Below are positions 10,260 through 61,421 of a stretch of 64,000 nucleotides of DNA, one piece after another (the stretch's first letter is position 1; each line of letters opens with the position of its first letter). The notes below the pieces were generated by a model, which had not been told where the DNA came from, ran no database searches, and worked only from the letters and a program-made list of their open reading frames with translations. The stretch lies in contig OZ025786.1 of NCBI GenBank assembly GCA_964019425.1, positions 1,302,001 to 1,366,000 on the forward strand. Reading direction: 5' to 3'. This DNA is from Flectonema sp. DT1601 (taxonomy: Eukaryota). Made by a program: the position numbers and the translations under genes.

Positions 10260-10810
10260 AGTCTTCCACCACCGCTCTTTCGCCACTCAGCTGCATGCAT
10301 CCAGATTTGCGGAACTGAATCCCCCACACAAAGTGAAAAAAGTGACTGTGAAACCCCTCAGCATGAAAGGGAATGTAGGGCTGCTAGCTCTGAAACAACA
10401 TTGCAAGAGACAACTGAGACACAAACACTTCCTATCACTGTTTATAGAGGAAATTTGATTGAAATTGAGACTCAAACGGATCATTTAATTAATCAGGATG
10501 AAAGAAAACAACGCTTTTTATTAAACAAACGCAAACTTTTAGAAAATGAAATAGAACAACAGAAAGAATTAGTAGCGCACCTAACTGCACTATCTACCTC
10601 CCTAAAAGAAAAAAGCGAACTCTTGGAAAAAGAGAACCAACACCCGGTCACTGAACTTGAATTAGTGAAAAGTTCTCTTCCAACATTAGTTCAAAGAACT
10701 AACTCCTTGGAGGAAAGTAGGAGGAGTGAACTAGCACGACAAACACAAAAGGCGGACCATGCCGAAATGTTTTTTTTCAACTTACAACAAAGGTTCATTC
10801 TTTTAATGAG
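10260..10810 (+). pseudogene. Truncated remnant of the coiled-coil C-terminal extension of an H-related retrotransposon
   Basis: LLEKENQHPVTELELVKSSL...QKADHAEMFFFNLQQRFILL aligns to LLEKENQHLIAECDLVKSSL...QRADHAEMFYFNLQQRFILL in the 30966-34025 ORF. Left boundary approximate. Confidence 0.8.
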
Positions 10811-23192: not shown

Positions 23193-26100
23193 GTGAACTA
23201 TCCAACCCTTGGACAATTCTGCTTGTCTAGGTTAGGAAGAGCCGACATTGAAGGATCAAAAGCAATGAACGCTTGGCTGGGTTTGCAGGCCCCAAAAGCT
23301 GAACGAAAAAATTGGGCCGTTCGAATCACTAACTTGCATGTTGTCGGTTGCAGTCATCACTCACCTGTCAGCATACTCTTTACCTTAATTACGCTCGATA
23401 TTGTTTCTGAGCCATTCTCTTTTCTATTTTTTTTTTTTTTTATTATTGCTACTTCACAACAAAAAAAAAAAGAAACACCGGGCCGGCGGTGTCATAAAGA
23501 TACTGGCAACCATCTCTCAGCCAACCCAGCCCCCGAGGCTTTGCAAGAGGCTATTTCGAGATCGGCTCTGGATGGGGATAAAACTTTAGTAGCCAAATGT
23601 CCTTTATGTTTTGAGACATACCTCAAAGGTCCAGTTGCGCATTTTAGACGTAACTGTAAGTTTAGTAAGGAATTTAAGGACTATAAGTCACGTTTTCCCC
23701 CATCTACCCACTCCCAAGTTAAAGATTGTTACCACTTACCTTGTCCAGAATGTGGTAAGCTTTTCAAAAGTATCGCTACGAGAGCGAAACACTGTGTTAA
23801 CGGTACATGTAAAGGTACACCTCTGTCTCCCCTCACAGGGAATAATTCAGACCTTGAACCTCCCTTTGTAGGAGAATCTGTAGATTTTAAAACTTCACAA
23901 ACAGCTTTCGTTCCTTATAACTCTACAACACCCACTTTTACCCCGTTACACCCGTCTCGTCTCAAATTCCGATCTTTTGGAACTGAATGGAAGGACATCG
24001 ACGTTTCTGCTGCAGAAAAACTTCAAACTTTCACCGTCGAAACAGAAAACTCTTCAAAACCTGCCGACCAACTTGATAAACTACTCAAAACGGTTTATCA
24101 AATATGTAGCGGTTTCTTTGAAGAAACAAAGCGGAATTTACCCCGCAAACAGAAATCAAGGGAAGAGGTCATCCTCGACCAAGAAAAACTTGAATGTCGT
24201 CTGGAAATGAAACAGCTAAGACAGGAGCTCCGCAAATCTGGGCCTTCTATAGAGAACGCTGTCAAATGGAAAGAGGCAAGAACGAGAATGAAAAGGATTT
24301 TCCGAATGTATCGGAATTTAGAAAAGAAAAATTTATTCAAAAAATTACAAGATAAATTTCGTCAAAATCCGTTTACTGCCATAAAAGAAGAACTCCAAAA
24401 AGAAGATCCTCAACCCCCCTCCCTTGATATTCCAGAGGAAAAAATAATTGAACATTTTAAAAACAATTATTGTGACAATGAAAAAAAAAAAACTGATTTC
24501 ACCCATCCCTCTTTTTTACCTAAGTCTGACTACAAGACAATGGATGATATCCAGTTCCCGAGCTTCGAACAGTTTGGTATTCTCTTATCAAAGAAAAAAA
24601 ACAAATGTGCCCCTGGTCCCAATTGCATACCTTATGTTGTATGGAAAAAGGTCCCAACTTTTATGGAAGCACTTTACAAGGTATTAAAGAGAATTTTCGA
24701 ACTCAAGGCCTATCCGGATAGTTGGGGCTTAGCATTTGTAACAATGCTCCCAAAGCCCAACTCCGATGGGAAAGACATCTCGAAAACGAGACCGATAGCT
24801 GTGGGCAACTGCGACGGGAAAATTTTTAATACGGTTATTCAGGAAGCTGTCGCAAGCCACACTCTTTCTAAATTTAATTTTCAAAAAGGCTTTAGGAAAG
24901 GTGTCTCTGGATGTATCGAACATGCCACGATCACCTCAGAGATTTTTAAAGAAGTGAAAGCTCTCCGGAAAAACCTAACAATTGTCTGGGTGGATTTGGC
25001 AGATGCTTTCGGCTCAGTCAAACATCAATTAATTTTCTTTGCTTTAAAATATTTCGGAATTCACGAAAGAATAATCGGTTTCTATAAAAGGTATTATTCC
25101 TCCATGCGCGTCCAAATCAGAGTTGGAGAAGGCCTGACGCCCACTATCCCTTTTGAAGTTGGTGTCTTTCAAGGCTGCGTTTCCTCCCCAACCCTTTTTA
25201 ATTTGGTATTCCAACTACTGCTCTTTTCCTTAGCAGTTCATCAACAGGAAGCCTACGAGTTTAACAATAAATCCCTCCAACTATTAGTTGCAGCTTTTGC
25301 TGATGATTTACAACTTACCACGTCATCAAAGGCGGGGGCAAAATTGCTAATCAAGTCGCTCGAACAGTTTCTTTCCTGGTCTCGAGGTATGAAAGCGAAA
25401 CCCCAGAAATGCATTGCCCACAGCTTTGTACAAGGGAAACCAGCTAACCCGGACCTGAAGATTAACAATGTTCCGATTACGAATCTCCAGGAAGCTGGAG
25501 AGTTCAAATACCTCGGGCGTTGGTTTGAGCCGAACGCCAAAGAACAGAAATTGCGAGAGCGCCTGACCACTTTTACCAGGAATTTTTTAAAAAAAGTCGA
25601 CGCCATGCCACTATATGGGTCTCAGAAGGCTTGGTCTGTCCAACACTTGTTATTGTCAAGGTTAACATGGAGTTTGATGATCCATGACTTATCTCTCCCT
25701 TTTGCCAAAAAAATGGACAAAATTATTAACCTTTTTTGAAGAAATGGTGGGGATTTGTCCGCTCTGCGAACACAGTCATCCTTTTTACCGGTTCAAAGAA
25801 CACTGTTGGTCTCAGACACAAAAGAGTTGAGACGCTATATAAACAAGCGCAATCAATTAAACTAGACATCCTCAGATCCTCACAGGACTCTGACATGCAC
25901 GGTGTCTACAATGTTATTATGGAGAAATCGTCCAACTGGTCGAAAAAGTTTTCAGCTTCTGCTGAGTGGGAGCGCCTTATTAAGTTTTTTTCTTACCGTT
26001 CTCTTGCGAAGCAATCAGCTGGTCTTGGTCACCGATTGCGCGATCTACGTACTACTCGCCCCGATCTCCTTAAGCGTTTTGAAGTGGAAGCCACAGATGA

Positions 26101-28253
26101 ACTACTGAACTCTTTGAATAAATTACAAGTCCAAGGTCAATGGAAGGAGTGGTCTAAATGTATGATAAACGACTTCACCTGGAATAAGGTACTTAGGGAG
26201 GGAAATCCTGCCTATATCTCATTTCAACTGAAAGCGGTTACAAACACCCTCCCCTCACAAGATAATTTAAAGAGGTGGAACATCACCAATGTGGACCAAA
26301 ATTGTGTTTTGTGTGGCAAAGTGAATCCTACCCTCAGGCATGTCTTAACAGGCTGTCCTGTCTCTTTAACACAAGGGAGGTTCACGTGGCGTCACGACAG
26401 CGTTCTAAAACGCATTGTTATCTTCTTGGAAGAGTTGATAATAAAAGCCAACAAAAGAAAAGAAAACCTCCCGCCTCCCTCTCAAACTTTTTTAAAAACA
26501 GGGGAAAATAAACCCCTAGAAAGAATTTCTAAAGAGACAGGCGAACTTTCACTAGCGAATGATTGGGTCATCCTCGACGATGTCGGTGATAACCGCCTAA
26601 TTGTTCCTCTTGAAGTGTGCCATGTCTCGTCCTCTCTAAGACCAGACATTTTTATTTATTCTTTTTTTGCGAAAAGAGCACTGATTTTGGAGCTGACGTG
26701 TCCAAATGAAGATCGTTTCGAAACCTCTCATGTCTTAAAGGAAAAGAAATACCTAAAGCTAAGAGACTCGATCATCGCTAATGGCTTCGACTGTAACATT
26801 TTTACTATTGAAGTTGGCGTACGAGGAAACATCTGCATGGACCAGCTGAACATCTGGACACGTCACATCGGTTCACCTTTAGCACCAACAAAAGCTTTAT
26901 TTTGTGAATGCACCAGAATCGCCAGACAGTGCTCATATGTTCTGTTCCAGACGAGGAACCTCCCCACGTGGCATTCAAGACCACTAATGCGCAGCATTAA
27001 AGAAGAACCTGCCACTGCAAGTTTTATAAAAGATGGTAAAGAAATCTTCCCTGTGGAAGAAGTCAAAATCCACAAAATAACAAAACTGAAAACGATCGAA
27101 AAGCTCACCATTGAAAGATCGTGGCTTGAGAAATGTTTTATCTGGCAAACTTGTTACGCATCGGCTCTTTCTATTCTACTTATTGCCAATGGTTCTTCCT
27201 CCCCGGCCCCTTCTGTTTTGTTAGATGAGGATGAGCTCACTGGACTCTCCTTGTCATTCTCTTCTATTTCTTCCATCTCTTTCCAGACTCCCCCACCTGA
27301 ACTCATGTCAACGGGATCGCAAACACTTCCTGCTGATTTCGCTATACTGCAACTGGAAATATTACTGCGCGGAAAAAACCGCACTAATTTCCAAATCTGC
27401 AAAAAACCGCACTAATTTTTCCACGCAGTAATATTTCCACCGCACTAATATTTCTGCTCAGAAGTGATTTTTTCTCCAGATGCATTTTTCTGCTGGTGCC
27501 TTACACAGCAAAAAAGCAACCAAATTTTTTTCTACCACCAGGTGGAAAAAACCGCGCTAATCTTTTCTCAAAAAAACCGCACTAATTTTTCCGCGCAGTA
27601 ATATTTCCCCGCAGTAATTATTCAGCGCAGTAATATTTCCAGTTGCAGTAGTGATAAGAACTCAATCTGACATGGGTTCTCAAACCCCCTTGTACAAAAA
27701 AAAAGAAGGAAAATTAAGGCTGAAACTTTCCTTGAAATGCCAGATTTTAGAAAACGAACTAGAACAAATGAAAGAACGAATGTTTTATGTTCTATTTTTA
27801 TTTTACTTTAATGCGATGTCAGCCTCCCTCGAGAAAGACAAGCAGTTACTAAATGGATTACCTGTTGAGATCAAAGCTACCAACCAGGATCCATCCTCAC
27901 TTCCTCCTGCACCCCCTGTTTTAATTATTGAAAAAGATAGAAAAGAATATGAACTTCTGGAAGGAGTAATTCAACGGTTAACAGCAGAACGCGATGAATC
28001 GAAGACTTCTCTTTCTGCACTAGTTCGACAATATGACTTAGTGGAAGATTACAGGAAACGTGAGCTCGCAAATCTGACTCAGAGAGCAGACCTATCGGAA
28101 ATGGCGCTCTTTAATTACCATCAAAGGTTTGTTCTTCTGTCGAACGAATTGGAGACCAAATGTAATGAGGAAAGAGAAAGTAAAATAAGACTTTTCTATA
28201 CTCAACAGGAGGTCGAGAGTTTGCGTGCCGCGCGTCCCCGTATGACCCACTTT
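23193..28253 (+). mobile_element. H copy 1 (outer): HERO-like R2-group non-LTR retrotransposon ORF, disrupted
   Basis: N-terminal Zn fingers (CPLC..HFRRNC; CPECGKLF..HC); RT (APGPN, RPIA, FQKGF, DLADAFGSV, GVFQGCVSSP, FADD, FKYLG); CVLC..HVLTGC; QGRFTWRHD; RPD..LELTCP..KKY..EVGVRG. One-base deletion near 25729 and a MITE at 27347. Confidence 0.9.
27347..27648. mobile_element. 302-bp MITE with TA target duplication (Tc1/mariner-type)
   Basis: 24-bp perfect TIR CTGCAACTGGAAATATTACTGCGC; empty site GCTATAGTG visible at ~32706 and ~42079; internal AAAAAACCGCACTAAT repeats. Confidence 0.9.
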
Positions 28254-30934
28254 TACCAGGAATTTTTTAAAAAAAGTCGACGCCATGCCACTATATGGGT
28301 CTCAGAAGGCTTGGTCTGTCCAACACTTGTTATTGTCAAGGTTAACATGGAGTTTAATGATCCATGACTTATCTCTCCCTTTTGCCAAAAAATTGGACAA
28401 AATTATTAAACCTTTTTTGAAGAAATGGTGGGGATTTGTCCGCTCTGCGAACACAGTCATCCTTTTTACCGGTTCAAAGAACACTGTTGGTCTCAGACAC
28501 AAAAGAGTTGAGACGCTATATAAACAAGCGCAATCAATTAAACTAGACATCCTCAGATCCTCACAGGACTCTGACATGCACGGTGTCTACAATGTTATTA
28601 TGGAGAAATCGTCCAATTGGTCGAAAAAGTTTTCAGCTTCTGCTGAGTGGGAGCGCCTTATTAAGTTTTTTTCTTACCGTTCTCTTGCGAAGCAATCAGC
28701 TGGTCTTGGTCACCGATTGCGCGATCTACGTACTACTCGCCCCGATCTCCTTAAGCGTTTTGAAGTGGAAGCCACAGATGAACTACTGAACTCTTTGAAT
28801 AAATTACAAGTCCAAGGTCAGTGGAAGGAGTGGTCTAAATGTATGATAAACGACTTCACCTGGAATAAGGTACTTAGGGAGGGAAATCCTGCCTATATCT
28901 CATTTCAACTGAAAGCGGTTACAAACACCCTCCCCTCACAAGATAATTTAAAGAGGTGGAACATCACCAATGTGGACCAAAATTGTGTTTTGTGTGGCAA
29001 AGTGAATCCTACCCTCAGGCATGTCTTAACAGGCTGTCCTGTCTCTTTAACACAAGGGAGGTTCACGTGGCGTCACGACAGCGTTCTAAAACGCATTGTT
29101 ATCTTCTTGGAAGAGTTGATAATAAAAGCCAACAAAAGAAAAGAAAACCTCCCGCCTCCCTCTCAAACTTTTTTAAAAACAGGGGAAAATAAACCCCTAG
29201 AAAGAATTTCTAAAGAGACAGGCGAACTTTCACTAGCGAATGATTGGGTCATCCTCGACGATGTCGGTGATAACCGCCTAATTGTTCCTCTTGAAGTGTG
29301 CCATGTCTCGTCCTCTCTAAGACCAGACATTTTTATTTATTCTTTTTTTGCGAAAAGAGCACTGATTTTGGAGCTGACGTGTCCAAATGAAGATCGTTTC
29401 GAAACCTCTCATGTCTTAAAGGAAAAGAAATACCTAAAGCTAAGAGACTCGATCATCGCTAATGGCTTCGACTGTAACATTTTTACTATTGAAGTTGGCG
29501 TACGAGGAAACATCTGCATGGACCAGCTGAACATCTGGACACGTCACATCGGTTCACCTTTAGCACCAACAAAAGCTTTATTTTGTGAATGCACCAGAAT
29601 CGCCAGACAGTGCTCATATGTTCTGTTCCAGACGAGGAACCTCCCCACGTGGCATTCAAGACCACTAATGCGCAGCATTAAAGAAGAACCTGCCACTGCA
29701 AGTTTTATAAAAGATGGTAAAGAAATCTTCCCTGTGGAAGAAGTCAAAATCCACAAAATAACAAAACTGAAAACGATCGAAAAGCTCACCATTGAAAGAT
29801 CGTGGCTTGAGAAATGTTTTATCTGGCAAACTTGTTACGCATCGGCTCTTTCTATTCTACTTATTGCCAATGGTTCTTCCTCCCCGGCCCCTTCTGTTTT
29901 GTTAGATGAGGATGAGCTCACTGGACTCTCCTTGTCATTCTCTTCTATTTCTTCCATCTCTTTCCAGACTCCCCCACCTGAACTCATGTCAACGGGATCG
30001 CAAACACTTCCTGCTGATTTCGCTATACTGCAACTGGAAATATTACTGCGCGGAAAAAACCGCACTAATTTCCAAATCTGCAAAAAACCGCACTAATTTT
30101 TCCACGCAGTAATATTTCCACCGCACTAATATTTCTGCTCAGAAGTGATTTTTTCTCCAGATGCATTTTTCTGCTGGTGCCTTACACAGCAAAAAAGCAA
30201 CCAAATTTTTTTCTACCACCAGGTGGAAAAAACCGCGCTAATCTTTTCTCAAAAAAACCGCACTAATTTTTCCGCGCAGTAATATTTCCCCGCAGTAATT
30301 ATTCAGCGCAGTAATATTTCCAGTTGCAGTAGTGATAAGAACTCAATCTGACATGGGTTCTCAAACCCCCTTGTACAAAAAAAAAGAAGGAAAATTAAGG
30401 CTGAAACTTTCCTTGAAATGCCAGATTTTAGAAAACGAACTAGAACAAATGAAAGAACGAATGTTTTATGTTCTATTTTTATTTTACTTTAATGCGATGT
30501 CAGCCTCCCTCGAGAAAGACAAGCAGTTACTAAATGGATTACCTGTTGAGATCAAAGCTACCAACCAGGATCCATCCTCACTTCCTCCTGCACCCCCTGT
30601 TTTAATTATTGAAAAAGATAGAAAAGAATATGAACTTCTGGAAGGAGTAATTCAACGGTTAACAGCAGAACGCGATGAATCGAAGACTTCTCTTTCTGCA
30701 CTAGTTCGACAATATGACTTAGTGGAAGATTACAGGAAACGTGAGCTCGCAAATCTGACTCAGAGAGCAGACCTATCGGAAATGGCGCTCTTTAATTACC
30801 ATCAAAGGTTTGTTCTTCTGTCGAACGAATTGGAGACCAAATGTAATGAGGAAAGAGAAAGTAAAATAAGACTTTTCTATACTCAACAGGAGGTCGAGAG
30901 TTTGCGTGCCGCGCGTCCCCGTATGACCCACTTT
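28254..30934 (+). repeat. 2,681-bp tandem duplication of the H ORF segment, including the MITE
   Basis: Identical junction CCCACTTT|TACCAGG at 28253 and 30934; ORF starts at 28285 and 30966 differ by 2,681. Confidence 0.9.
30028..30329. mobile_element. 302-bp MITE, duplicated copy
   Basis: Same TIRs and same site as 27347. Confidence 0.9.
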
Positions 30935-33900
30935 TACCAGGAATTTTTTAAAAAAAGTCGACGCCATGCCACTATATGGGTCTCAGAAGGCTTGGTCTGT
31001 CCAACACTTGTTATTGTCAAGGTTAACATGGAGTTTAATGATCCATGACTTATCTCTCCCTTTTGCCAAAAAATTGGACAAAATTATTAAACCTTTTTTG
31101 AAGAAATGGTGGGGATTTGTCCGCTCTGCGAACACAGTCATCCTTTTTACCGGTTCAAAGAACACTGTTGGTCTCAGACACAAAAGAGTTGAGACGCTAT
31201 ATAAACAAGCGCAATCAATTAAACTAGACATCCTCAGATCCTCACAGGACTCTGACATGCACGGTGTCTACAATGTTATTATGGAGAAATCGTCCAATTG
31301 GTCGAAAAAGTTTTCAGCTTCTGCTGAGTGGGAGCGCCTTATTAAGTTTTTTTCTTACCGTTCTCTTGCGAAGCAATCAGCTGGTCTTGGTCACCGATTG
31401 CGCGATCTACGTACTACTCGCCCCGATCTCCTTAAGCGTTTTGAAGTGGAAGCCACAGATGAACTACTGAACTCTTTGAATAAATTACAAGTCCAAGGTC
31501 AGTGGAAGGAGTGGTCTAAATGTATGATAAACGACTTCACCTGGAATAAGGTACTTAGGGAGGGAAATCCTGCCTATATCTCATTTCAACTGAAAGCGGT
31601 TACAAACACCCTCCCCTCACAAGATAATTTAAAGAGGTGGAACATCACCAATGTGGACCAAAATTGTGTTTTGTGTGGCAAAGTGAATCCTACCCTCAGG
31701 CATGTCTTAACAGGCTGTCCTGTCTCTTTAACACAAGGGAGGTTCACGTGGCGTCACGACAGCGTTCTAAAACGCATTGTTATCTTCTTGGAAGAGTTGA
31801 TAATAAAAGCCAACAAAAGAAAAGAAAACCTCCCGCCTCCCTCTCAAACTTTTTTAAAAACAGGGGAAAATAAACCCCTAGAAAGAATTTCTAAAGAGAC
31901 AGGCGAACTCTCACTAGCGAATGATTGGGTCATCCTCGACGATGTCGGTGATAACCGCCTAATTGTTCCTCTTGAAGTGTGCCATGTCTCGTCCTCTCTA
32001 AGACCAGACATTTTTATTTATTCTTTTTTTGCGAAAAGAGCACTGATTCTGGAGCTGACGTGTCCAAATGAAGATCGTTTCGAAACCTCTCATGTCTTAA
32101 AGGAAAAGAAATACCTAAAGCTAAGAGACTCGATCATCGCTAATGGCTTCGACTGTAACATTTTTACTATTGAAGTTGGCGTACGAGGAAACATCTGCAT
32201 GGACCAGCTGAACATCTGGACACGTCACATCGGTTCACCTTTAGCACCAACAAAAGCTTTATTTTGTGAATGCACCAGAATCGCCAGACAGTGCTCATAT
32301 GTTCTGTTCCAGACGAGGAACCTCCCCACGTGGCATTCAAGACCACTAATGCGCAGCATTAAAGAAGAACCTGCCACCGCAAGTTTTATAAAAGATGGTA
32401 AAGAAATCTTCCCTGTGGAAGAAGTCAAAATCCACAAAGTAACAAAACTGAAAACGATCGAAAAGCTCACCATTGAAAGATCGTGGCTTGAGAAATGTTT
32501 TATCTGGCAAACTTGTTACGCATCGGCTCTTTCTATTCTACTCATTGCCAATGGTTCTTCTTCCTCCCCGGCCCCTTCTTTTTTGTTAGATGAGGATGAG
32601 CTCACTGGACTCTCCTTGTCATTCTCTTCTATTTCTTCCATCTCTCTCCAGAATTCCCCACCTGAACTCATGTCAACGGGATCGCAAACACTTCCTGCTG
32701 ATTTCGCTATAGTGATAAGAAGTCAATCTGACATGGGTTCCCAAACCCCCTTGTACAATAAAAAAGAAGGAAGATTAAGGCTGAAACTTTCCTTGAAATG
32801 CCAGATTTTAGAAAACGAACTAGAACAAATGAAAGAACGAATGTTTTATGTTCTATTTTTATTTTACTTTAATGCGATGTCAGCCTCCCTTGAGAATGAC
32901 AAGCAGCTACTGAATGGATTGTCTATTGAGAACAAAGCATCCAAACAACGGGCCGCCGAGAGTGTATCTCACAGCCCACTCCCTTTAAATCTATCCGCAC
33001 CCCCATCTGTCTTTAACGTAGAAACGGAACAGAAAAAACGTGAACTATTGGAAAAAGAGAATCAACACCTGATCGCTGAATGTGATTTAGTGAAAAGTTC
33101 TCTTCTCTCATTAGTTCAAAGAACTAACTCTCTGGAGGAAAAAAGGACGAGCGAGCTGGCGCGACAATCACAAAGAGCGGACCACGCTGAAATGTTTTAT
33201 TTCAACTTACAACAAAGGTTCATTCTATTAAACAATGAATTAGAATCTAAGTGTAGGGACGAAACTGGAACAAAAATTCAACTCTATTTGTCTCAACAAG
33301 AGGTCGCAACATTGCGTGCTGGCCCTCAACTGTCCCATTTTTCCCAACAATTTTCCCCAACACCCCCTTTTTTATTCGAATCAACGTCCACGGTAAAGAA
33401 TTATCGACTCCCTCTCATCGCAACAACCTATTACTCCTGGACTCCCAAACCCCGTCTTTCCTTTTTTTTTAAACCTCATTCTCCATTGATCACGTTCCCT
33501 TCTGAACTGTCTCAAAGTAGACTACTGGTATCGTCTTCTGCTCAAACGGAACAAGAAAAAGACAGTGCGGCGACCTCATCGACGGAAGATTCACCTATTG
33601 CGAGGCAATGGTCCGAAGGTAGACTCGATTTACTGGACAACTACTGTCAAGCGGTAAGTGACTCTCTCCAGACAAATGAGAAAGTGGCGCTGCTCTCGGA
33701 AAAACTAGTGGAAGAGCAACGTCGATGCTCCGAGTTGAGCTATCAACAGAAGACTATCCATAAAGAACAACTGGATCATTCCATGTTGTTGATGGAGATG
33801 GCCAGTGAGCTCTCTGAGCAACTCTATTTGGCAAAAGACCAAAACAGAGCTCTCAAATTTCAGTTACAAACATGGGCAAATGGTTTTAACCCACCCGAAA

Positions 33901-34505
33901 AGGAAGCGCAAGAAGAAAATGAGACCCCAAAGCGTCCGAGGGAGCGCCTATCCCAAAAAAAGCGAACTCCACCCTCAACGAATCCTCATGATCGCAGAAG
34001 AATCTTTTTAGATGACGATTGCTAAGTTCTAGTTTCTATTAGTATTAAATTATTTGTATTATTTTGTCGATATGTTTATGTCTGTCCGATCATAACGTCA
34101 ATCAGATTAATTGTTAATTGTAATTGGTTTGAGCGCTTATCAAAAAAAAAAAAAAGCGAACTCCAACCTCAACGAACTTTCATGATCGCAGAAGAATCTT
34201 TTTAGATGACGATTGCTAAGTTCTAGTTTCTATTAGTATTTATTTATTTGTATTATTTTGTCGATATGTTTATGTCCGTCAGATCATAACGTTAATCAGA
34301 TTAATTGTCAATTGTTAATTGTAAATGGTCTAAACCCCAATCCAAGTTCCCAAGGCTTGGCATAGATTTGAGTGACGCCTTACTGGCCTCCTCATCCTCT
34401 ATGAGTGGTGAGGGGGCCAGCAATGGTTTTTTTTTTTTTTCTCTTATTTCCTTTTTTCTTTTTCTTTTACTCTAATAGGAAATATTTTTGAACAAAATGT
34501 GATTA

Positions 34506-34540
<35 letters not shown>

Positions 34541-36297
34541 AATGAATAATAAAAAAAAAAAAAAAAAAAAAAACATGCCTTGGGAATACAACCAAAGCCC
34601 CAATTAATCGGTCCTTTCTTTTTTCCTTCTTGTCAAGTGATCGCTCCACTCGTCGATCACCAAAACCGATTGTATTTATATCTGTTCTTTTCTCAACGAT
34701 CGGCTATACCGATCTTTTTTTTAAAAATAATTGTTTTCTTCTTCTCGACGATCAGATCCAATTGATCGACCTTTTCTTTTTTTTTCCTTTATTCCTTCCA
34801 TCCCTCCCGCTCCCCTTATTTTAATAAAAACAAGATCAGCACAGCTTGATCGTTAAACTTTTTTTATTTATTTATTTTTTTTTTTTTTTTTATTTAAACT
34901 GATTGTATTTATATCTGGTTATTTTTCTCAACGATCGGCTATGCCGATCGACCATTAAAATAATTGTCTTCTTCTTCTCGACGACCAGATCCAATTGATC
35001 GACCTTTTCTTTTTTTTTCCTTTATTCCTTCCATCCCTCCCGCTCCCCTTATTTTAATAAAAACAAGATCAGCTCAGCTTGATCGTTATTTATTTATTTA
35101 TTTATTTTTTTTTTTTTTTTGTTGGTCCTAGTCAAGACCTTAAACTGACTAATCGGTCTTAACTTTAACTAAGTGAATGAACCCTTTCCGTTTTCCTTTT
35201 CCCTTTATTACTCTCTATCTGGTCTGTTATGTCATAAATCTCATTTAATTTTATCATTCATTTTAATTTTCACTGTTTCCCATCTACATTTTATTTTCAA
35301 ATAGTTCCGGTCTGTCTCTGATGTTAAATAAAACTGATCATGTTAACTCAATATTTTTTTTTATTATGTGCAAGAGATACCAACACGCAAGAGATACCAA
35401 CGCACATACGAGATACCAGCACTTCCGAGATACCGACACACAAGAGATACCAAGACACTTAAGATACCAGCAAGGACAGTGAGAGGTAGAATGAACTCTC
35501 CTCCTTGTGTCCGATCCTGATTATTTTTTGTTGAATTGGTAGTGTTACCTCAGTTTGCTACTCTCGTATCTGTGTTGTGTTAACTCATGTAAGTGATCTT
35601 AACTCCTGTTAAATAAAAAAAAAATTTCAAAAAAAAAGAAATTAAAAAAGAAGAATTTTCAAATGAAGTTATATCAACCCCTGCCACCCATTATGATCAA
35701 TTCCGCTTGTTTTTTTTTTTTTTTTTTTTTTTTTCTTCTTTCTTTTCTTCAAATATAAAAAAAAATTAAAAAATATAAAAGATGAAACAATGTTATCATT
35801 GTTTTTTTTATCGATCGACTATGTCGATTACTTCCAGTTTTCCGTCCTGGTCAAGACGCTAAACTGATTGTTTTTTTTTTTTTTTTTAAAAAATTAATAA
35901 AAAGAATATAAAAAAAAAAAAAAAAGAATAAACAATGTTATCATTGTTTTTTTTTATCGTTCGACTTTGTCGACTAATTTCTATTTTCCGTTTCTTTTCT
36001 TTAAATAATAAATAAAAAGAATTTAAAATAAAAAAAAAGAATAAACAATGTTATCATTGTTTTTTTATCGATCGACTATGTCGATTACTTTCTATTTTCC
36101 GTCCTGGTCAAGACGCTAAACTGATTGTTTTTTTTTCAAAATTAATAAAAAAGAATAAAAAAAAAAAAAAAAAAAAAAAGAATAAACAATGTTATCATTG
36201 TTTTTTTATCGATCGACTATGTCGATCACTTTCTATTTTCCGTCCTGGTCAAGACGCTAAACTGATTGTTTTTTTTTTCAAAATTAATAAAAAAGAA

Positions 36298-36328
<31 letters not shown>

Positions 36329-38956
36329 GAATAAACAATGTTATCATTGTTTTTTTTATCGTTCGACTTTGTTGACTAATTTCTATTTTCCGTTTTTTTT
36401 CTTTTAAAAAATAAATAAAAAGAATTTAAAATAAAAAAAAAGAATAAACAATGTTATCATTGTTTTTTTATCGATCGACTATGTCGATCACTTTCTATTT
36501 TCCGTCCTGGTCAAGACGCTAAACTGATTGTTTTTTTTCAAAATTAATAAAAAAGAATATAAAAAAAAAAAAAAAAAAGAATAAACAATGTTATCATTGT
36601 TTTTTTTTTTATCGTTCGACTTTGTCGACTAATTTCTATTTTCCGTTTCTTTTCTTTAAAGAATAAATAAAAAGAATTTAAAATAAAAAAAAAGAATAAA
36701 CAATGCTATCATTGTTTTTTTTATCGATCGACTATGTCGATCACTTTCTATTTTCCGTCCTGGTCAAGACGCTAAACTGATTGTTTTTTTTTTTCAAAAT
36801 TAATAAAAAAGAATATAAAAAAATACAAAAAAAAAGAATAAACAATGTTATCATTGTTTTTTTTTATCGTTCGACTTTGTCGACTAATTTCTATTTTCCG
36901 TTTTTTTTCTTTTAAAAATAAATAAAAAGAATTTAAAATAAAAAAAAAGAATAAACAATGTTATCATTGTTTTTTTATCGATCGACTATGTCGATCACTT
37001 TCTATTTTCCGTCCTGGTCAAGACGCTAAACTGATTGTTTTTTTTTTTTCAAAATAAAAAAAAAATATTAAAAAAAAAAAAATAAAAAAAAAAAAGAATA
37101 AACAATGTTATCATTGTTTTTCTTTATCGTTCGACTTTGTTGACTAATTTCTATTTTCCGTTTTTTTTTCTTTAAAAAATAAATAAAAAGAATTTAAAAA
37201 AAAAAAAAAAAAAAAAAGAATAAACAATGTTATCATTGTTTTTTTTATCGATCGACTATGTCGATTACTTTCTATTTTCCGTCCTGGTCAAGACGCTAAA
37301 CTGATTGTTTTTTTTCAAAATTAATAAAAAAGAATATAAAAAAATACAAAAAAAAGAATAAACAATGTTATCATTGTTTTCTTTATCGATCGACTATGTC
37401 GATTACTTTCTATTTTCCGTCCTGGTCAAGACGCTAAACTGATTGTTTTTTTTTCAAAATTAATAAAAAAGAATATAAAAAAATACAAAAAAAAGAATAA
37501 ACAATGTTATCATTGTTTTTTTTATCGATCGACTATGTCGATTACTTTCTATTTTCCGTCCTGGTCAAGACGCTAAACTGATTGTTTTTTTTTCAAAATT
37601 AATAAAAAAGAATATAAAAAAATACAAAAAAAAGAATAAACAATGTTATCATTGTTTTTTTTATCGATCGACTATGTCGATTACTTTCTATTTTCCGTCC
37701 TGGTCAAGACGCTAAACTGATTGTTTTTTTTTTCAAAATTAATAAAAAAGAATATAAAAAAATACAAAAAAAAGAATAAACAATGTTATCATTGTTTTTT
37801 TTATCGATCGACTATGTCGATTACTTTCTATTTTCCGTCCTGGTCAAGACGCTAAACTGATTGTTTTTTTTTTCAAAATAAAAAAAAAATATTAAAAAAA
37901 AAAAAATAAAAAAAAAGAATAAACAATGTTATCATTGTTTTTTTTTATCGTTCGACTTTATTGACTAATTTCTATTTTCCGTTTTTTTTCTTTAAAAAAT
38001 AAAAAAAAAGAATTTAAAAAAAAAAAAAAAAAAAGAATAAACAATGTTATCATTGTTTTTTTTATCGATCGACTATGTCGATTACTTTCTATTTTCCGTC
38101 CTGGTCAAGACGCTAAACTGATTGTTTTTTTTTCAAAATTAATAAAAAAAAAGAATATAAAAAAATACAAAAAAAAGAATAAACAATGTTATCATTGTTT
38201 TTTTTTATCGTTCGACTTTGTCGACTAATTTCTATTTTCCGTTTTTTTTCTTTAAAAAATTAATAAAAAGAATTTAAAATAAAAAAAAAAAAGAATAAAC
38301 AATGTTATCATTGTTTTTTTTATCGATCGACTATGTCGATTACTTTCTATTTTCCGTCCTGGTCAAGACGCTAAACTGATTGTTTTTTTTTTCAAAATTA
38401 ATAAAAAAGAATATAAAAAAAATAAAAAAAAAAAAGAATAAACAATGTTATCATTGTTTTTTTTTATCGTTCGACTTTGTTGACTAATTTCTATTTTCCA
38501 TTTTTTTTCTTTTTAAAAATAAATAAAAAGAATTAAAATAAAAAAAAAAAAAAAAGAATAAACAATGTTATCATTGTTTTTTTTATCGATCGACTATGTC
38601 GATTACTTTCTATTTTCCGTCCTGGTCAGGACGCTAAACTGATTGTTTTTTCTTTAAAAATAAATAAAAAGAATAAAAAAAAAAAAAAAAGGAATAAACA
38701 ATGTTATCATTGTTTTTTTTTTATCGATCGACTATGTCGATTACTTACTATTTTCCGTCCTGGTCAAGACGCTAAACTGATTGTTTTTTCTTTAAAATAA
38801 TTAAAAAGATTTAAAAAAAAAAAAAAAAAAAAAAAATGAATAAACAATGTTATCATTGTTTTTTTTTCTATCGATCAACTATGTCGATTAATTTCTATTT
38901 TCCGTCCTGATCGAGACGCTAAACTGATTGTTTCCTTTTTTTAAATAATAAATAAG

Positions 38957-38988
<32 letters not shown>

Positions 38989-39387
38989 ATCTCCCTGCTA
39001 TCCCTCATATCCCCACAATAATATTATACCTTTTCATTTTCTCTTTCCTTTTCTGGTCTTTTTTTTTTTCTTTTTTTCCTTTTTCATACAACGTTTTTTA
39101 TTTATATATATATATTTTTTTTTTTTTTTTTCATGTTTGATTATTTCCTCTTCATTTTTTTTTTTCTTTTCTTTTCTTTCTTTTTTTTTTTTTTTCCTCT
39201 GCCTCTCTCTTAATTCTGTTCGTTTCTTTGAAACGAAAATTCATTTGAATATTATTCCTTGGTCAGCAACCATCATTGTCGCCCTTTGGGCCTGTTAAAA
39301 AAAAATAAAATAAAAAGAAAGTTTACATCGGGAATAGGGCAGGAGCCAAAAGCTCCCAGTCCGTTACTTCCCACTTTATCGAAATTC
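30935..39387 (+). mobile_element. H copy 3: 5'-truncated ORF (variant B tail, stop 34025), 3' UTR, satellite array and cap
   Basis: The host-copy sequence CCCACTTT^AGTCAACAAG is split exactly around it and resumes at 39388. Confidence 0.85.
35780..38960 (+). repeat. Satellite array of ~139-bp (A) and ~113-bp (B) units
   Basis: Core GAATAAACAATGTTATCATTG(T)nATCGATCGACTATGTCGAT...TTTTCCGTCCTGGTCAAGACGCTAAACTGATTG; A-unit starts at 37356, 37495 and 37634. Confidence 0.95.
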
Positions 39388-39524
39388 AGTCAACAAGTTT
39401 CCCCCCGAACCCCCGTTCTGTATGAATCTGTTGCTATGATGAAGATAGCAAAGAACTACCTCTCGCTCTTTACAACTACGAGTAGTCTTTTTACTCCTCT
39501 TATTAAACCCCTTATCCCTACCCT
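39388..39524 (+). pseudogene. Resumed fragment of the outer H ORF
   Basis: Matches ~42688-42824. Confidence 0.85.
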
Positions 39525-42500
39525 GGTCAAGACGCTAAACTGATTGTTTTTTTTTTCAAAATAAAAAAAATATTAAAAAAAAAAAAATAAAAAAAAAGAA
39601 TAAACAATGTTATCATTGTTTTTTTTTTATTGTTCGACTTTGTTGACTAATTTCTATTTTCCGTTTTTTTTTCTTTAAAAAATAAATAAAAAGAATTTAA
39701 AAAAAAAAAAAAAAAAAGAATAAACATTGGATTTGGCAGATGCTTTCGGCTCAGTCAAACATCAATTAATTTTCTTTGCTTTAAAATATTTCGGAATTCA
39801 CGAAAGAATAATCGGTTTCTATAAAAGGTATTATTCCTCCATGCGCGTCCAAATCAGAGTTGGAGAAGGCCTGACGCCCACTATCCCTTTTGAAGTTGGT
39901 GTCTTTCAAGGCTGCGTTTCCTCCCCAACCCTTTTTAATTTGGTATTCCAACTACTGCTCTTTTCCTTAGCAGTTCATCAACAGGAAGCCTACGAGTTTA
40001 ACAATAAATCCCTCCAACTATTAGTTGCAGCTTTTGCTGATGATTTACAACTTACCACGTCATCAAAGGCGGGGGCAAAATTGCTAATCAAGTCGCTCGA
40101 ACAGTTTCTTTCCTGGTCTCGTGGTATGAAAGCGAAACCCCAGAAATGCATTGCCCACAGCTTTGTACAAGGGAAACCAGCTAACCCGGACCTGAAGATT
40201 AACAATGTTCCGATTACGAATCTCCAGGAAGCTGGAGAGTTCAAATACCTCGGGCGTTGGTTTGAGCCGAACGCCAAAGAACAGAAATTGCGAGAGCGCC
40301 TGACCACTTTTACCAGGAATTTTTTAAAAAAAGTCGACGCCATGCCACTATATGGGTCTCAGAAGGCTTGGTCTGTCCAACACTTGTTATTGTCAAGGTT
40401 AACATGGAGTTTAATGATCCATGACTTATCTCTCCCTTTTGCCAAAAAAATGGACAAAATTATTAAACCTTTTTTGAAGAAATGGTGGGGATTTGTCCGC
40501 TCTGCGAACACAGTCATCCTTTTTACCGGTTCAAAGAATACTGTTGGTCTCAGACACAAAAGAGTTGAGACGCTATATAAACAAGCGCAATCAATTAAAC
40601 TAGACATCCTCAGATCCTCACAGGACTCTGACATGCACGGTGTCTACAATGTTATTATGGAGAAATCGTCCAACTGGTCGAAAAAGTTTTCAGCTTCTGC
40701 TGAGTGGGAGCGCCTTATTAAGTTTTTTTCTTACCGTTCTCTTGCGAAGCAATCAGCTGGTCTTGGTCACCGATTGCGCGATCTACGTACTACTCGCCCC
40801 GATCTCCTTAAGCGTTTTGAAGTGGAAGCCACAGATGAACTACTGAACTCTTTGAATAAATTACAAGTCCAAGGTCAATGGAAGGAGTGGTCTAAATGTA
40901 TGATAAACGACTTCACCTGGAATAAGGTACTTAGGGAGGGAAATCCTGCCTATATCTCATTTCAACTGAAAGCGGTTACAAACACCCTCCCCTCACAAGA
41001 TAATTTAAAGAGGTGGAACATCACCAATGTGGACCAAAATTGTGTTTTGTGTGGCAAAGTGAATCCTACCCTCAGGCATGTCTTAACAGGCTGTCCTGTC
41101 TCTTTAACACAAGGGAGGTTCACGTGGCGTCACGACAGCGTTCTAAAACGCATTGTTATCTTCTTGGAAGAGTTGATAATAAAAGCCAACAAAAGAAAAG
41201 AAAACCTTCCGCCTCCCTCTCAAACTTTTTTAAAAACAGGGGAAAATAAACCCCTAGAAAGAATTTCTAAAGAGACAGGCGAACTTTCACTAGCGAATGA
41301 TTGGGTCATCCTCGACGATGTCGGTGATAACCGCCTAATTGTTCCTCTTGAAGTGTGCCATGTCTCGTCCTCTCTAAGACCAGACATTTTTATTTATTCT
41401 TTTTTTGCGAAAAGAGCACTGATTCTGGAGCTGACGTGTCCAAATGAAGATCGTTTCGAAACCTCTCATGTCTTAAAGGAAAAGAAATACCTAAAGCTAA
41501 GAGACTCGATCATCGCTAATGGCTTCGACTGTAACATTTTTACTATTGAAGTTGGCGTACGAGGAAACATCTGCATGGACCAGCTGAACATCTGGACACG
41601 TCACATCGGTTCACCTTTAGCACCAACAAAAGCTTTATTTTGTGAATGCACCAGAATCGCCAGACAGTGCTCATATGTTCTGTTCCAGACGAGGAACCTC
41701 CCCACGTGGCATTCAAGACCACTAATGCGCAGCATTAAAGAAGAACCTGCCACTGCAAGTTTTATAAAAGATGGTAAAGAAATCTTCCCTGTGGAAGAAG
41801 TCAAAATCCACAAAGTAACAAAACTGAAAACGATCGAAAAGCTCACCATTGAAAGATCGTGGCTTGAGAAATGTTTTATCTGGCAAACTTGTTACGCATC
41901 GGCTCTTTCTATTCTACTTGTTGCCAATGGTTCTTCCTCCCCGGCCCCTTCTGTTTTGTTAGATGAGGATGAGCTCACTGGACTCTCCTTGTCATTCTCT
42001 TCTATTTCTTCCATCTCTTTCCAGACTCCCCCACCTGAACTCATGTCAACGGGATCGCAAACACTTCCTGCTGATTTCGCTATAGTGATAAGAACTCAAT
42101 CTGACATGGGTTCTCAAACCCCCTTGTACAAAAAAAAAGAAGGAAAATTAAGGCTGAAACTTTCCTTGAAATGCCAGATTTTAGAAAACGAATTAGAGCA
42201 AATGAAAGAACGAATTTTTTATGTTCTATTTTTATTTTACTTTAATGCGATGTCAGCCTCCCTCGAGAAAGACAAGCAGTTACTAAATGGATTACCTGTT
42301 GAGATCAAAGCTACCAACCAGGATCCATCCTCACTTCCTCCTGCACCCCCTGTTTTAATTATTGAAAAAGATAGAAAAGAATATGAACTTCTGGAAGGAG
42401 TAATTCAACGGTTAACAGCAGAACGCGATGAATCGAAGACTTCTCTTTCTGCACTAGTTCGACAATATGACTTAGTGGAAGATTACAGGAAACGTGAGCT

Positions 42501-43738
42501 CGCAAATCTGACTCAGAGAGCAGACCTATCGGAAATGGCGCTCTTTAATTACCATCAAAGGTTTGTTCTTCTGTCGAACGAATTGGAGACCAAATGTAAT
42601 GAGGAAAGAGAAAGTAAAATTAGACTTTTCTATACTCAACAGGAGGTCGAGAGTTTGCGTGCCGCGCGTCCCCGTATGACCCACTTTAGTCAACAAGTTT
42701 CCCCCCGAACCCCCGTTCTGTATGAATCTGTTGCTATGATGAAGATAGCAAAGAACTACCTCTCGCTCTTTACAACTACGAGTAGTCTTTTTACTCCTCT
42801 TATTAAACCCCTTATCCCTACCCTTAATTATATCACCCCTCTTTGTCCTCTAGCCTCAATTCCTCCGACAATGCCGCAGAGTGAAGCTCTCGACCGCACG
42901 CCGACCAAGATTTTACGACAAGAGAGTCACGTTATCTCCGTTAAAGAGAATACACCTATTGCGAGACAATGGTCCGAGGGTAGGATTGACTTACTCGAGA
43001 ACTACTGTCGAGCAGTAGATGACTCTCTCGAAACAAACGAGAAAGCGGCAGAGCTCTCAGAACAACTTCTGGATGCCCAACTTCGCCTCTCGGAGCTGAA
43101 TCACCAACGGTGTACAACTCACGCAGAGCAGCTTGAGCAATCCATGATGTTAACGGGACTGGCGAGCGATTTAAATGCTCAACTCGCTTTGGCACGGTCT
43201 CAAATTGCGGCCCTGAAGTTCCAATTAGCTTCATGGGCAGAAGGTTTGAGTCCGCCAGACACAGAAGAACATGAGGAAAATGAAACTCCGCCGAGAAAGT
43301 CTGAGCGTTCAACTCTGAAAAAACGAACCCCTCCATCAAGATATCGTTACAATCGAAGGAGATGTTCTGCTGATGACGTTCACGGTGACTCCACCCCCTT
43401 GTAATTCTCTTTTTCCTTACTTTCACATCACTTTGTTTATTTAGTTTTTTAGCTTATTTATTATTTATTGTTCGTTTTTGTTTGTATTATTTTATCGATA
43501 TGTTTATGTCCGTCAGATCATAACGTTAATCAGGTTAATTGTTAATTGTTAATTATAAATGGTCTAAACCCCAATCCAAGTTCCCAAGGCTTGGCATAGA
43601 TTTGAGTGACGCCTTACTGGCCTCCTCATCCTCTATGAGTGGTGAGGGGGCCAGCAATGGTTTTTTTTTTTTTCTCTTATTTCTTTTTTTCTTTTTCTTT
43701 TACTCTAATATGAAATATTTTTGAACAAAATGTGATTA

Positions 43739-45024: not shown

Positions 45025-48000
45025 GATGAAACAATGTTATCATTGTTTTTTTTATCGATCGACTATGTCGATTACTTCCAGTTTTCCGTCCTGGTCAAGA
45101 CGCTAAACTGATTGTTTTTTTTTTTTTTTTTTTTAAAAAATTAATAAAAAGAATATATTAAAAAAAAAAAAAAAAAGAATAAACAATGTTATCATTGTTT
45201 TTTTTTATCGTTCGACTCTGTCGACTAATTTCTATTTTCCGTTTCTTTTCTTTAAATAATAAATAAAAAGAATTTAAAATAAAAAAAAGGAATAAACAAT
45301 GTTATCATTGTTTTTTTATCGATCGACTATGTCGATTACTTTCTATTTTCCGTCCTGGTCAAGACGCTAAACTGATTGTTTTTTTTTTCAAAATTAATAA
45401 AAAAGAATATTAAAAAAAAAAAAAAAAAAAAAAAAGAATAAACAATGTTATCATTGTTTTTTTTTATTGTTCGACTTTGTTGACTAATTTCTATTTTCCG
45501 TTTTTTTTCTTTAAAAAATAAATAAAAAGAATTTAAAATAAAAAAAAAGAATAAACAATGTTATCATTGTTTTTTTATCGATCGACTATGTCGATCACTT
45601 TCTATTTTCCGTCCTGGTCAAGACGCTAAACTGATTGTTTTTTTTTTCAAAATTAATAAAAAAGAATACTGCAACTGGAAATATTACTGCGCGGAAAAAA
45701 CCGCACTAATTTCCAAATCTGCAAAAAACCGCACTAATTTTTCCACGCAGTAATATTTCCACCGCACTAATATTTCTGCTCAGAAGTGATTTTTTCTCCA
45801 GCTGCATTTTTCTGCTGGTGCCTTACACAGCAAAAAAGCAACCAAATTTTTTTCTACCACCAAGTGGAAAAAACCGCACTAATCTTTTCTCAAAAAAACC
45901 GCACTAATTTTTCCGCGCAGTAATATTTCCCCGCAGTAATTATTCAGCGCAGTAATATTTCCAGTTGCAGTATAAAAAAAAAAAAAAAAAAAAAAAAAAT
46001 AAACAATGTTATCATTGTTTTTTTTATCGTTCGACTTTGTTGACTAATTTCTATTTTCTGTTTTTTTTTCTTTAAAAAAAAAATAAATAAAAAGAATTTA
46101 AAATAAAAAAAAAGAATAAACAATGTTATCATTGTTTTTTTATCGATCGACTATGTCGATCACTTTCTATTTTCCGTCCTGGTCAAGACGCTAAACTGAT
46201 TGTTTTTTTTTCAAAATTAATAAAAAAGAATATAAAAAAAAAAAAAAAAAAAAGAATAAACAATGTTATCATTGTTTTTTTTTTTATCGTTCGACTTTGT
46301 CGACTAATTTCTATTTTCCGTTTCTTTTCTTTAAAGAATAAATAAAAAGAATTTAAAATAAAAAAAAAAGAATAAACAATGTTATCATTGTTTTTTTTAT
46401 CGATCGACTATGTCGATCACTTTCTATTTTCCGTCCTGGTCAAGACGCTAAACTGATTGTTTTTTTTTTTCAAAATTAATAAAAAAGAATATAAAAAAAT
46501 ACAAAAAAAAGAATAAACAATGTTATCATTGTTTTTTTTATCGTTCGACTTTGTCGACTAATTTCTATTTTCCGTTTTTTTTCTTTAAAAAATAAATAAA
46601 AAGATTTTAAATAAAAAAAAAGAATAAACAATGTTATCATTGTTTTTTTATCGATCGACTATGTCGATCACTTTCTATTTTCCGTCCTGGTCAAGACGCT
46701 AAACTGATTGTTTTTTTTTTCAAAATTAATAAAAAAGAATATAAGAAAAAAAAAAAAAAAGAATAAACAATGTTATCATTGTTTTTTTTTATCGTTCGAC
46801 TTTGTCGACTAATTTCTATTTTCCGTTTCTTTTCTTTAAAGAATAAATAAAAAGAATTTAAAATAAAAAAAAAGAATAAACAATGTTATCATTGTTTTTT
46901 TATCGATCGACTATGTCGATCACTTTCTATTTTCCGTCCTGGTCAAGACGCTAAACTGATTGTTTTTTTTTTTTCAAAATTAATAAAAAAGAATATAAAA
47001 AAAAAAAAAAAAAAGGAAAAACAATGTTATCATTGTTTTTTTTTTATCGTTCGACTTTGTCGACTAATTTCTATTTTCCGTTTCTTTTCTTTAAAGAATA
47101 AATAAAAAGAATTTAAAATAAAAATAAAAAAAAAGAATAAACAATGTTATCATTGTTTTTTTTTATCGATCGACTATGTCGATCACTTTCTATTTTCCGT
47201 CCTGGTCAAGACGCTAAACTGATTGTTTTTTTTTTTCAAATTAATAAAAAAGAATATAAAAAAATACAAAAAAAAGAATAAACAATGTTATCATTGTTTT
47301 TTTTATCGTTCGACTTTGTCGACTAATTTCTATTTTCCGTTTTTTTTTTTCTCTTTAAAAAATAAATAAAAAGAATCTAAAATAAAAAAAAAGAATAAAC
47401 AATGTTATCATTGTTTTTTTATCGATCGACTATGTCGATCACTTTCTATTTTCCGTCCTGGTCAAGACGCTAAACTGATTGTTTTTTTTTTTTTTTCAAA
47501 ATTAATAAAAAAGAATATTAAAAAAAATACAAAAAAAAAAAGAATAAACAATGTTATCATTGTTTTTTTTTTTATCGTTCGACTTTGTCGACTAATTTCT
47601 ATTTTCCGTTTCTTTTCTTTAAAGAATAAATAAAAAGAATTTAAAATAAAAATAAAAAAAAAGAATAAACAATGTTATCATTGTTTTTTTTTATCGATCG
47701 ACTATGTCGATCACTTTCTATTTTCCGTCCTGGTCAAGACGCTAAACTGATTGTTTTTTTTTTTCAAATTAATAAAAAAGAATATAAAAAAATACAAAAA
47801 AAAGAATAAACAATGTTATCATTGTTTTTTTTATCGTTCGACTTTGTCGACTAATTTCTATTTTCCGTTTTTTTTTTTCTCTTTAAAAAATAAATAAAAA
47901 GAATCTAAAATAAAAAAAAAGAATAAACAATGTTATCATTGTTTTTTTATCGATCGACTATGTCGATCACTTTCTATTTTCCGTCCTGGTCAAGACGCTA

Positions 48001-49473: not shown

Positions 49474-50307
49474 GAGTTGAATTTCCAGGTGAGATTTGGA
49501 CTGTTAGCTTTTGGCTAAGGCCCTCCCTGAAGAGCAAGAACAAAAAAACTACTCACACCTGAAGAAAACATACACAAAGAACACACTGTAAGCTGTGTGT
49601 GTATTTTGTGTTTGTCACAACAGGAGAGAAAAGAAAGAATGTCAAGGTTGGTCACCTTGCCTATCAACGCACAACATTGGTGGTCTCTACTAGACCCTGA
49701 GTGATCCCACTGGATCTCTCATCGTTCATAGTACCCTGTGTGAAGTTATAAAATCAAAGGTAAACTATGAACTACAAATGACTTAGCCTGTTATTATAAT
49801 GCCACAGGCAGGCCCTGCATTCAGCAACTATCCAGCAGTGCTTGGATGTCCTGATCTTCTTCTAAAAAAAAGAAAGAAAAACAAAACTGTAGCTGGGATC
49901 ACTCAGGATCAACAGACTACCAATGCTACCTGTTGTACTTGCTCACTATGGGGGGTGATGCCAAACACCCAGAAGTACTTAACTACTTTCCTTCTTGCTG
50001 CCCAGGAGTTTCTGACCAGAACTAATAGAAAATAAAAAGTAGATGGGAAACAATAAAAAGTAAAATGGATATAACTGAAGTTAAACAAGACAAATGAGGT
50101 AACAGACCAGAACAGAAAGAGGATTGTAATAGAAGATTACAAATAAAAGAAATGCAAGTATCAACACATAATCAAGATACACCAGCAGCTAACAAACAAC
50201 ATAAAATTGAAGATCAGTTGCCAGAGTATTTCAACCATGGTAGAATACTCGCCCCTCTGGCAGGGATTATCCCAGACTTGTCCTTTAATTTAGTTGGACA
50301 CCATGGC
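49474..50307 (-). mobile_element. Family X copy inserted in an H cap
   Basis: Splits TACATCG^GGAATAGGGC without a clear TSD. Confidence 0.85.
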
Positions 50308-50477
50308 AGGAATAGGGCAGGAGCCAAAAGCTCCCAGTCCGTTACTTCCCACTTTATCGAAATTCATTATATCACCCCTCTTTGTCCTCTAGCCTCAATT
50401 CCTCCGACAATGCCGCAGAGTGAAGCTCTCGACCGCACGCCGACCAAGATTTTACGACAAGAGAGTCACGTTATCTC

Positions 50478-60674: not shown

Positions 60675-60706
<32 letters not shown>

Positions 60707-61084: not shown

Positions 61085-61421
61085 GACGAAGGCTTCTGAG
61101 TCACGAACCTAAATCGATGATGAGGATCGTTAAGCCACATTTCTAAAGGCTTTTACTAACGTGAGAATTTCTGTTGTCGATGGTTCGAATATGCCTGACA
61201 AAAATTACCTAATTTGGAACTTGAAGTCTGGTGAATTTTGGTTGGAGGTCTTAGTCTCACTGGTGAACTGCACAGTAACATTTTAAAGTGATCGATCACA
61301 CGGGAGGGGTCTTGGTGATTTATTGCAACGGGAATATGTCTCAACTCGACCAGTGGGTGATCAATCCGCCCTTTGACTATGTTTTGGTCTCATTTTCCGT
61401 CATTACGAAAAAGAGAAAAAA

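Follow-up and report, generated by a model that had tools for sequence, protein, structure and literature searches.

An RLE-type non-LTR retrotransposon in the window (the whole 64-kb stretch of DNA analysed here) carries a tail of 564 amino acids fused in frame behind its restriction-like endonuclease (RLE). The tail is an orphan, is under purifying selection and is found in three subtypes on one core, in an element that occurs in 5'-truncated copies with a fixed 3' end. From the structure predictions we propose, giving it an even chance, that the tail is a coiled-coil scaffold that would oligomerise the RT-nuclease protein on its own RNA (an RNP scaffold). Proteins of the R2 group, which are now being engineered to insert genes, are described as compact single proteins that end in the nuclease. 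A lineage in nature in which large post-nuclease fusions are tolerated and selected would offer a usable fusion site, and suggests that R2-group elements bring their own oligomerisation or host-manipulating modules.

The retrotransposon core and the open frame behind it

39724..43404 (+): single ORF, truncated at its 5' end, from a non-LTR retrotransposon of the RLE type; 1226 aa between stops, with tail type A
39724..40254 (+): C-terminal portion of the RT domain (PF00078, E 6e-17)
41041..41094 (+): CCHC zinc knuckle, inside a PF13966 zf-RVT match
41281..41709 (+): restriction-like endonuclease, approximate start, last residue the conserved Trp in QTRNLPTW
41710..43404 (+): the orphan tail (type A) at the C-terminus, 564 codons to 43401, stop at 43402-43404

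The ORF is homologous to a longer copy of the element from 39728, with satellite DNA directly before it. PF00078 is matched in that longer copy (23460..28253) at E 1e-26, which identifies a non-LTR reverse transcriptase, and R2 proteins are the top PDB matches of the RT region (E 1e-21). The CCHC knuckle is followed by a PD-(D/E)xK nuclease, with C101 C104 H113 C118, P214 D215, E230 and K246 invariant in alignment A2; the PD, ELT.P.E and K of the RLE are invariant in 13 aligned proteins. The nearest relatives share only about 34% identity with the core. QTRNLPTW ends at residue 662 of the ORF, in which no 2A-like motif was found.

The element is an RLE-type (R2-group) retrotransposon, probably related to HERO. 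Its named relatives are unclassified animal proteins, which we take to resemble HERO, and in trees the element falls outside these animal proteins, on a long branch. It has in common with RLE-type elements a single ORF (N-terminal zinc fingers, RT, CCHC knuckle, RLE) and 5'-truncated copies with a fixed 3' end. However, the RLE is usually C-terminal, whereas here 564 aa follow it (architecture is not a basis of clade membership), and the element differs further in its 5.4-kb 3' region with an internal satellite and no poly(A). No target motif was seen by eye across 8 junctions, a small sample, on which target-sequence specificity is absent or weak, as is taken to characterise the HERO clade. 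Many HERO families are likewise described without an evident target sequence in the sections consulted of PMC4640811.

The initial annotation had noted that the frame stays open far past QTRNLPTW, and it does so for 564 codons beyond the nuclease. Each of the other five frames has 23-39 stops over the same stretch, and the probability of 564 open codons by chance at the local base composition is 2e-14. The Ser-rich linker, heptad-like segments and KKRTPPS that it had listed are all found in the tail. The hydrophobic stretches are present too, but modest, and they are not transmembrane-like (best 19-residue Kyte-Doolittle mean 1.38-1.40), which rules out a transmembrane segment.

Copies, tail subtypes and selection

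Self-comparison of the window reveals a nest of element copies, as follows.

30927..34025 (+): second copy (B), core 99% identical, tail type B of 563 aa (32334-34022)
42320..43477 (+): block divergent from copy B, about 60% nt identity, flanks 92-99% identical
10317..10805 (+): piece of tail type C, the third and more diverged one, tied to the A/B linker by protein P0063
23460..28253 (+): oldest, longest copy, with N-terminal zinc fingers and full RT, 5' boundary approximate
39385-39524, 50363-50477, 52884-53098, 53423-53828: leftover tail pieces of the longest copy, split by nested insertions
34026..39388 (+): 3' region of copy B, 5363 bp, with ~1.7 kb of unique sequence, a satellite array of ~140-bp units and an end piece, X

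The cores of copies A and B differ at 6 positions in 468 codons, 5 of them synonymous. Copy B is >90% identical up to about 42320 and ~97% identical again past 43477. As the ~60% block thus lies between flanks of 92-99% identity, the tails have been exchanged, and the A/B pair is a ready-made swap experiment. Type C (10317-10805; P0063, P0070) is ~33% identical to A. In sequencing run X1, 762 bp of B-type tail is also present; contigs of runs X5 and X6 leave the B-specific block uncovered and run X7 gave none, which is no evidence that type B is missing there.

The longest copy has two zinc-finger-like motifs N-terminally, one frameshift near 25730 and a MITE inside its tail, which later insertions have broken at the equivalents of 42687, 42824, 42938, 43155 and 43561. 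A tandem duplication of a 2681-bp unit, with short microhomology at the join, covers 25567-30934. End piece X is ~400 bp long and lacks poly(A). Its 3' end is fixed and is seen 8 times, with variable 5' starts, and X copies show the pattern of 5'-truncated target-primed insertions. Given the variable starts and the fixed end, the satellite would be carried by the element itself.

A dN/dS comparison across variants, proposed with the initial annotation, contradicts neutral evolution of the tail: corrected dN/dS between A and B is 0.30 over the whole tail, and 14 of the 23 tail differences in contigs of four runs are synonymous, where neutrality would give a share of 0.23-0.32 (p 1e-4 to 4e-3, depending on transition bias). 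Contigs of low depth may contain errors; none of the 23 differences is a stop or a frameshift, and leaving out 7 differences from B-type contigs gives 11/16 synonymous. Over the 346 codons of the divergent block, where amino acid identity is 50% and both frames are open, A and B are identical at codon positions 1/2/3 in proportions of 0.68/0.70/0.45. With pS 0.71 and pN 0.30 the uncorrected ratio is 0.35-0.49; this is an upper limit, since synonymous sites are nearly saturated. Predicted helical segments are 52-61% conserved at the amino acid level between A and B, vs 29-38% for the linkers, and no tail segment shows any sign of dN above dS. The comparisons indicate that purifying selection keeps the tail open and fused, and part of the A/B signal could predate the fusion.

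Predicted tail anatomy and the post-nuclease cargos of relatives

42040..42126 (+): cluster of three [TS]Q[TS] motifs in 25 aa, candidate LC8-like sites, predicted disordered, just before helix 1
42133..42288 (+): predicted helix / coiled coil 1 (tail 142-193, pLDDT 51-59)
42361..42663 (+): predicted coiled coil 2 (tail 218-318, pLDDT about 70-85)
42955..43239 (+): predicted coiled coil 3 (tail 416-510, pLDDT about 66-86), 61% aa identity A vs B, the best-conserved tail segment
43279..43362 (+): basic tip, a T-P-x-[KR] site and KKRTPPS common to A and B

AlphaFold with a 10-row alignment predicts three long helices with disordered linkers (mean pLDDT 52 and pTM 0.24 for the tail overall), with low confidence everywhere but in coiled coils 2 and 3; the single-sequence model is unusable (pLDDT 34). 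A simple in-house heptad score, used as the coiled-coil score, marks the predicted helices in all three tail types but no part of the core, with modest a/d hydrophobic enrichment (0.37-0.47 vs 0.19-0.35). Of the two kinds of module first suggested for the tail, oligomerisation or chromatin targeting, it is the former that this predicted helical, heptad-rich anatomy fits. The basic tip is possibly a nuclear-localisation or nucleic-acid-binding segment; T-P-x-[KR] we assume to be a kinase site and KKRTPPS a nuclear signal, as consensus motifs.

The [TS]Q[TS] cluster has a shuffle p of 0.00025 for a pattern picked after the cluster was seen, and type C has TQT and TQTD at the aligned place before helix 1. 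In the portion of PMC3078936 drawn on here, LC8 motifs lie in disordered segments beside coiled coils (consensus [D/S]K X [TVI] Q [TV] [DE], VSRGTQTE). The motif stretch is likewise predicted disorder next to a coiled coil, with pLDDT <40 over tail 101-140 and a helix from 142. Lys at -3 is missing from the A and B motifs, two of which have Ser at -1. These motifs match the LC8 consensus, built around an invariant Gln with a TQT-type anchor, partially, and the tail may be a putative ligand.

For the proposed scaffold, two or more proteins would pair via coiled coils 2 and 3, the host dynein light chain LC8 may clamp the TQT-like motifs before helix 1, and the basic tip may aid nuclear import or RNA binding. 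This would amount to a packaging function like that of ORF1p, fused in cis, which could be useful for a transcript of ~11 kb (about 1,700 codons plus the satellite-containing 3' region). L1 has a coiled-coil RNA-packaging protein (PMC6428221, in part), and L1 coiled coils have been exchanged between families by recombination (PMC3600994, in part). Like the coiled coil of LINE-1 ORF1p, the predicted one of the tail belongs to a retrotransposon, evolves rapidly and moves from one family to another. However, ORF1p, with its RNA-binding domains, has its own ORF upstream, whereas the tail is fused downstream; it shows no similarity to ORF1p in sequence or fold, and no Pfam or fold match to an RNA-binding domain like those of ORF1p (RRM, C-terminal).

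That RLE ORFs usually stop soon after the nuclease, as the initial annotation stated, holds in two samples. Among 32 other knuckle-nuclease proteins (20 of them taken in by the Pfam scan), 20 end <=21 aa from the aligned Tyr, 2 at 50-76 aa and 1 at 149 aa, while 8 carry a USP domain and 1 a DarT-like domain. Among the best 80 of 323 metagenome loci, which include some near-copies, 73 reach a stop (50 at <=30 aa, 11 at 31-99, 12 at 100 or more) and 7 are open, 2 of these exceeding 240 aa. Long tails are thus found in 10/32 proteins and 14/80 loci, the latter comprising 9 USP, 3 DarT-like and 2 without a family, and none is like the type A, B or C tail.

P0018-P0031, L007, L011, L012, L014, L019, L029, L034, L036, L040: USP (PF00443) in frame after the RLE, one group in trees
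P0027, L053:2503-3627, L071:1874-3016, L078:1928-2893: DarT-like ADP-ribosyltransferase (PF14487) after the RLE, E 1e-21 to 1e-25

The Cys and His catalytic boxes of the USP cargos are mostly intact, and the YHFT and QAEVL motifs are seen in most DarT-like cargos. Broken DarT-like remnants are present in L033, L047 and L075. These relatives share with the element the nuclease lineage and the fusion point after the conserved Trp; however, they carry enzyme domains, whereas the type A tail is a non-enzymatic, predicted helical orphan on a separate long branch. In quick and FastTree trees (P0044 and P0046 left out of one, one short-cover locus out of another), USP bearers form one group and DarT-like bearers fall in another. 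The element stands on its long branch beside short-tailed P0017 and P0021 with weak support, or is placed without resolution in another tree. P0017 and P0021, the nearest relatives, have tails of only 19 and 13 aa, so retrotransposition in general does not depend on the tail, a point against the scaffold.

Since post-nuclease tails recur (USP, DarT-like), the slot is not unique, but the predicted coiled-coil cargo is. The cargos are unrelated, which implies at least three independent gains, and the lineage of this nuclease thus has a slot for C-terminal cargo that has been filled that often. NeSL and Utopia are also RLE elements with gained accessory domains (Ulp1-like protease or RNase H; consulted part of PMC4640811), although these domains lie upstream of the RT. 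The nuclease of RLE elements is placed at the C-terminus in the parts used of PMC4640811 and PMC13708176, and the part used of PMC5678591 contains nothing on post-nuclease tails. No description of post-RLE ubiquitin, DarT or coiled-coil domains was found in the literature covered, partly as excerpts (Repbase Reports, most subscription journals and supplements lay outside its scope). The wider view, which we hold tentatively and at somewhat under an even chance, is of a broad, mostly undescribed R2-group branch with an exchangeable post-nuclease slot. It would be filled by host-manipulating modules (USP, a DarT-like DNA ADP-ribosyltransferase or an LC8-clamped coiled-coil scaffold), with tail types recombined between subfamilies. 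The USP and DarT-like cargos may be a larger result than the coiled-coil tail.

These cargos also bear on a rather unlikely alternative, that the tail is a host-interaction or counter-defence module which binds or decoys a silencing or restriction factor, its diverged subtypes being kept and swapped in an arms race, as may also hold for the USP and DarT-like domains. In its favour, a 99%-identical core bears three subtypes, enzymes with their catalytic boxes or motifs fill the same slot in relatives, and an OTU domain is found in a neighbouring element, which we take to be Penelope-like. However, the tail has no enzyme domain, and the selection seen is purifying, with dN not above dS in any segment. 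Host interaction is compatible with oligomerisation.

Insertion sites, origin of the tail and neighbouring elements

49474-50307, 50478-52883, 21363-22196, 14432-15183, 12273-12491: element Y, a repeated ~836-bp piece, fixed end, variable start
27344-27650, 30025-30331, 45666-45972: 307-bp MITE, inverted repeats at its ends, TA as insertion site, in tail and satellite

Y probably represents the 3' end of another non-LTR family; it is also joined to the retrotransposon with the tail in proteins from other contigs. Of the eight element 3' ends in the window, six lie inside the element's own sequence, one in Y and one apparently in the Penelope-like ORF. That the tail anchors the protein at heterochromatin, at centromeres or at the element's own satellite, and in this way causes the nested clustering, is quite unlikely. 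The six self-insertions are what a tether would give, as are 10 of 51 family protein fragments that run into X (a set biased to broken copies, which may include the window's own) and, from partial text of PMC9940879, LINE clusters that mark putative centromeres in Chlamydomonas. However, self-hits are expected because the element is most of the right two-thirds of the window, unrelated elements pile up in the same region, and there is neither a target motif nor a chromatin-reader domain. The dense local clusters of one LINE family formed by ZeppL of Chlamydomonas (PMC9940879, same text) are similar, but ZeppL is L1-type.

The chromatin targeting first suggested for the tail accordingly finds no backing, as no chromatin-reader family or fold was found in it (it may hold a novel reader). 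Nor does any link appear between tail and clustering, which it had been thought to explain; Y, two MITE types and the Penelope-like element crowd the same region. A chromodomain-like start was also considered and has no support (Atlas on tail 1-85, all scores 0.84 or lower).

No homologue of the tail outside its own family was detected. A word-seeded search gave 1 match, a B copy, among 7991 scored candidates (proteins 674-2146 aa). HMMER with a 4-sequence tail profile gave 22 matches among 1.84 billion representative proteins, 21 of them type A, B or C fragments, many interrupted by X, Y or MITE. The only match outside the family, P0068 (E 6e-4), has no BLAST match to the tails and is put down to chance. 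Pfam gave only a sub-threshold coiled-coil match, and Foldseek vs PDB 0 matches at E 0.001, with weak generic helical ones only. Atlas look-alikes are generic eukaryotic coiled-coil proteins (recognition 1577, below the level where scores count). In viral contigs neither a relative of the nuclease nor an LC8 gene was found.

This orphan status would suit a coding fragment picked up from the host or a foreign source, or a second ORF that became joined through stop-codon loss, carried as a passive passenger, a reading we consider very unlikely. Its GC3 (0.39-0.40 in the tail vs 0.44 in the core vs 0.36 in a host gene) and several Met codons near the tail start that could permit separate translation are in line with such an origin. 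However, recent variants are mostly synonymous, both subtypes are open and fused, and the 22 HMMER matches include no unfused or host copy.

Contigs of other runs bridge nuclease and tail: X2 over 40744-43560 with 8 differences and 0 gaps, X3 over 40615-42705 with 0 gaps, and X1 likewise across the junction without gaps. The RT region continues through the nuclease to the tail end in P0075, P0079, P0082 and P0083 (type A) and P0006 (type B), all from other ENA contigs and among the matches listed from two clusters, of 47 and 235 members. One of these runs or contigs may be what the window itself derives from. Repeats and rearrangements abound in the region, but these independent contigs, which tell against an assembly artefact, together with the improbable length of the open run and the purifying selection, leave an artefact or a chance open frame with negligible probability.

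Further features were seen in the window, whose LSU rRNA fragments mark the host as a eukaryote.

60447-61604 (+), 16230-17242 (-): non-autonomous DNA element with terminal inverted repeats; its degenerate 28S rRNA piece of ~400 bp includes the R2 target region, and one of the copies lies within satellite
22250-23400: same terminal motif as the 28S-carrying element, other end not found, antisense LSU rRNA fragments at 23032-23253, adjoining the longest copy upstream
17569-19824 (-): the Penelope-like element, RT then OTU protease domain (Pfam) and a Cys-rich end, apparently 5'-broken by a satellite and X insertion
11183-11266 (-): weak twister-P1 ribozyme match, 31 bits vs a gathering score of 67
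13633-14517 (+): ORF with a weak endonuclease VII match, presumably a Polinton-like polymerase fragment
8315-9754 (-): multi-RRM protein, which we take to be PTB/hnRNP L-like
1-6747 (-): intron-free ORF of >2249 aa with dynein-related AAA domains, presumably RNF213-like, running off the window
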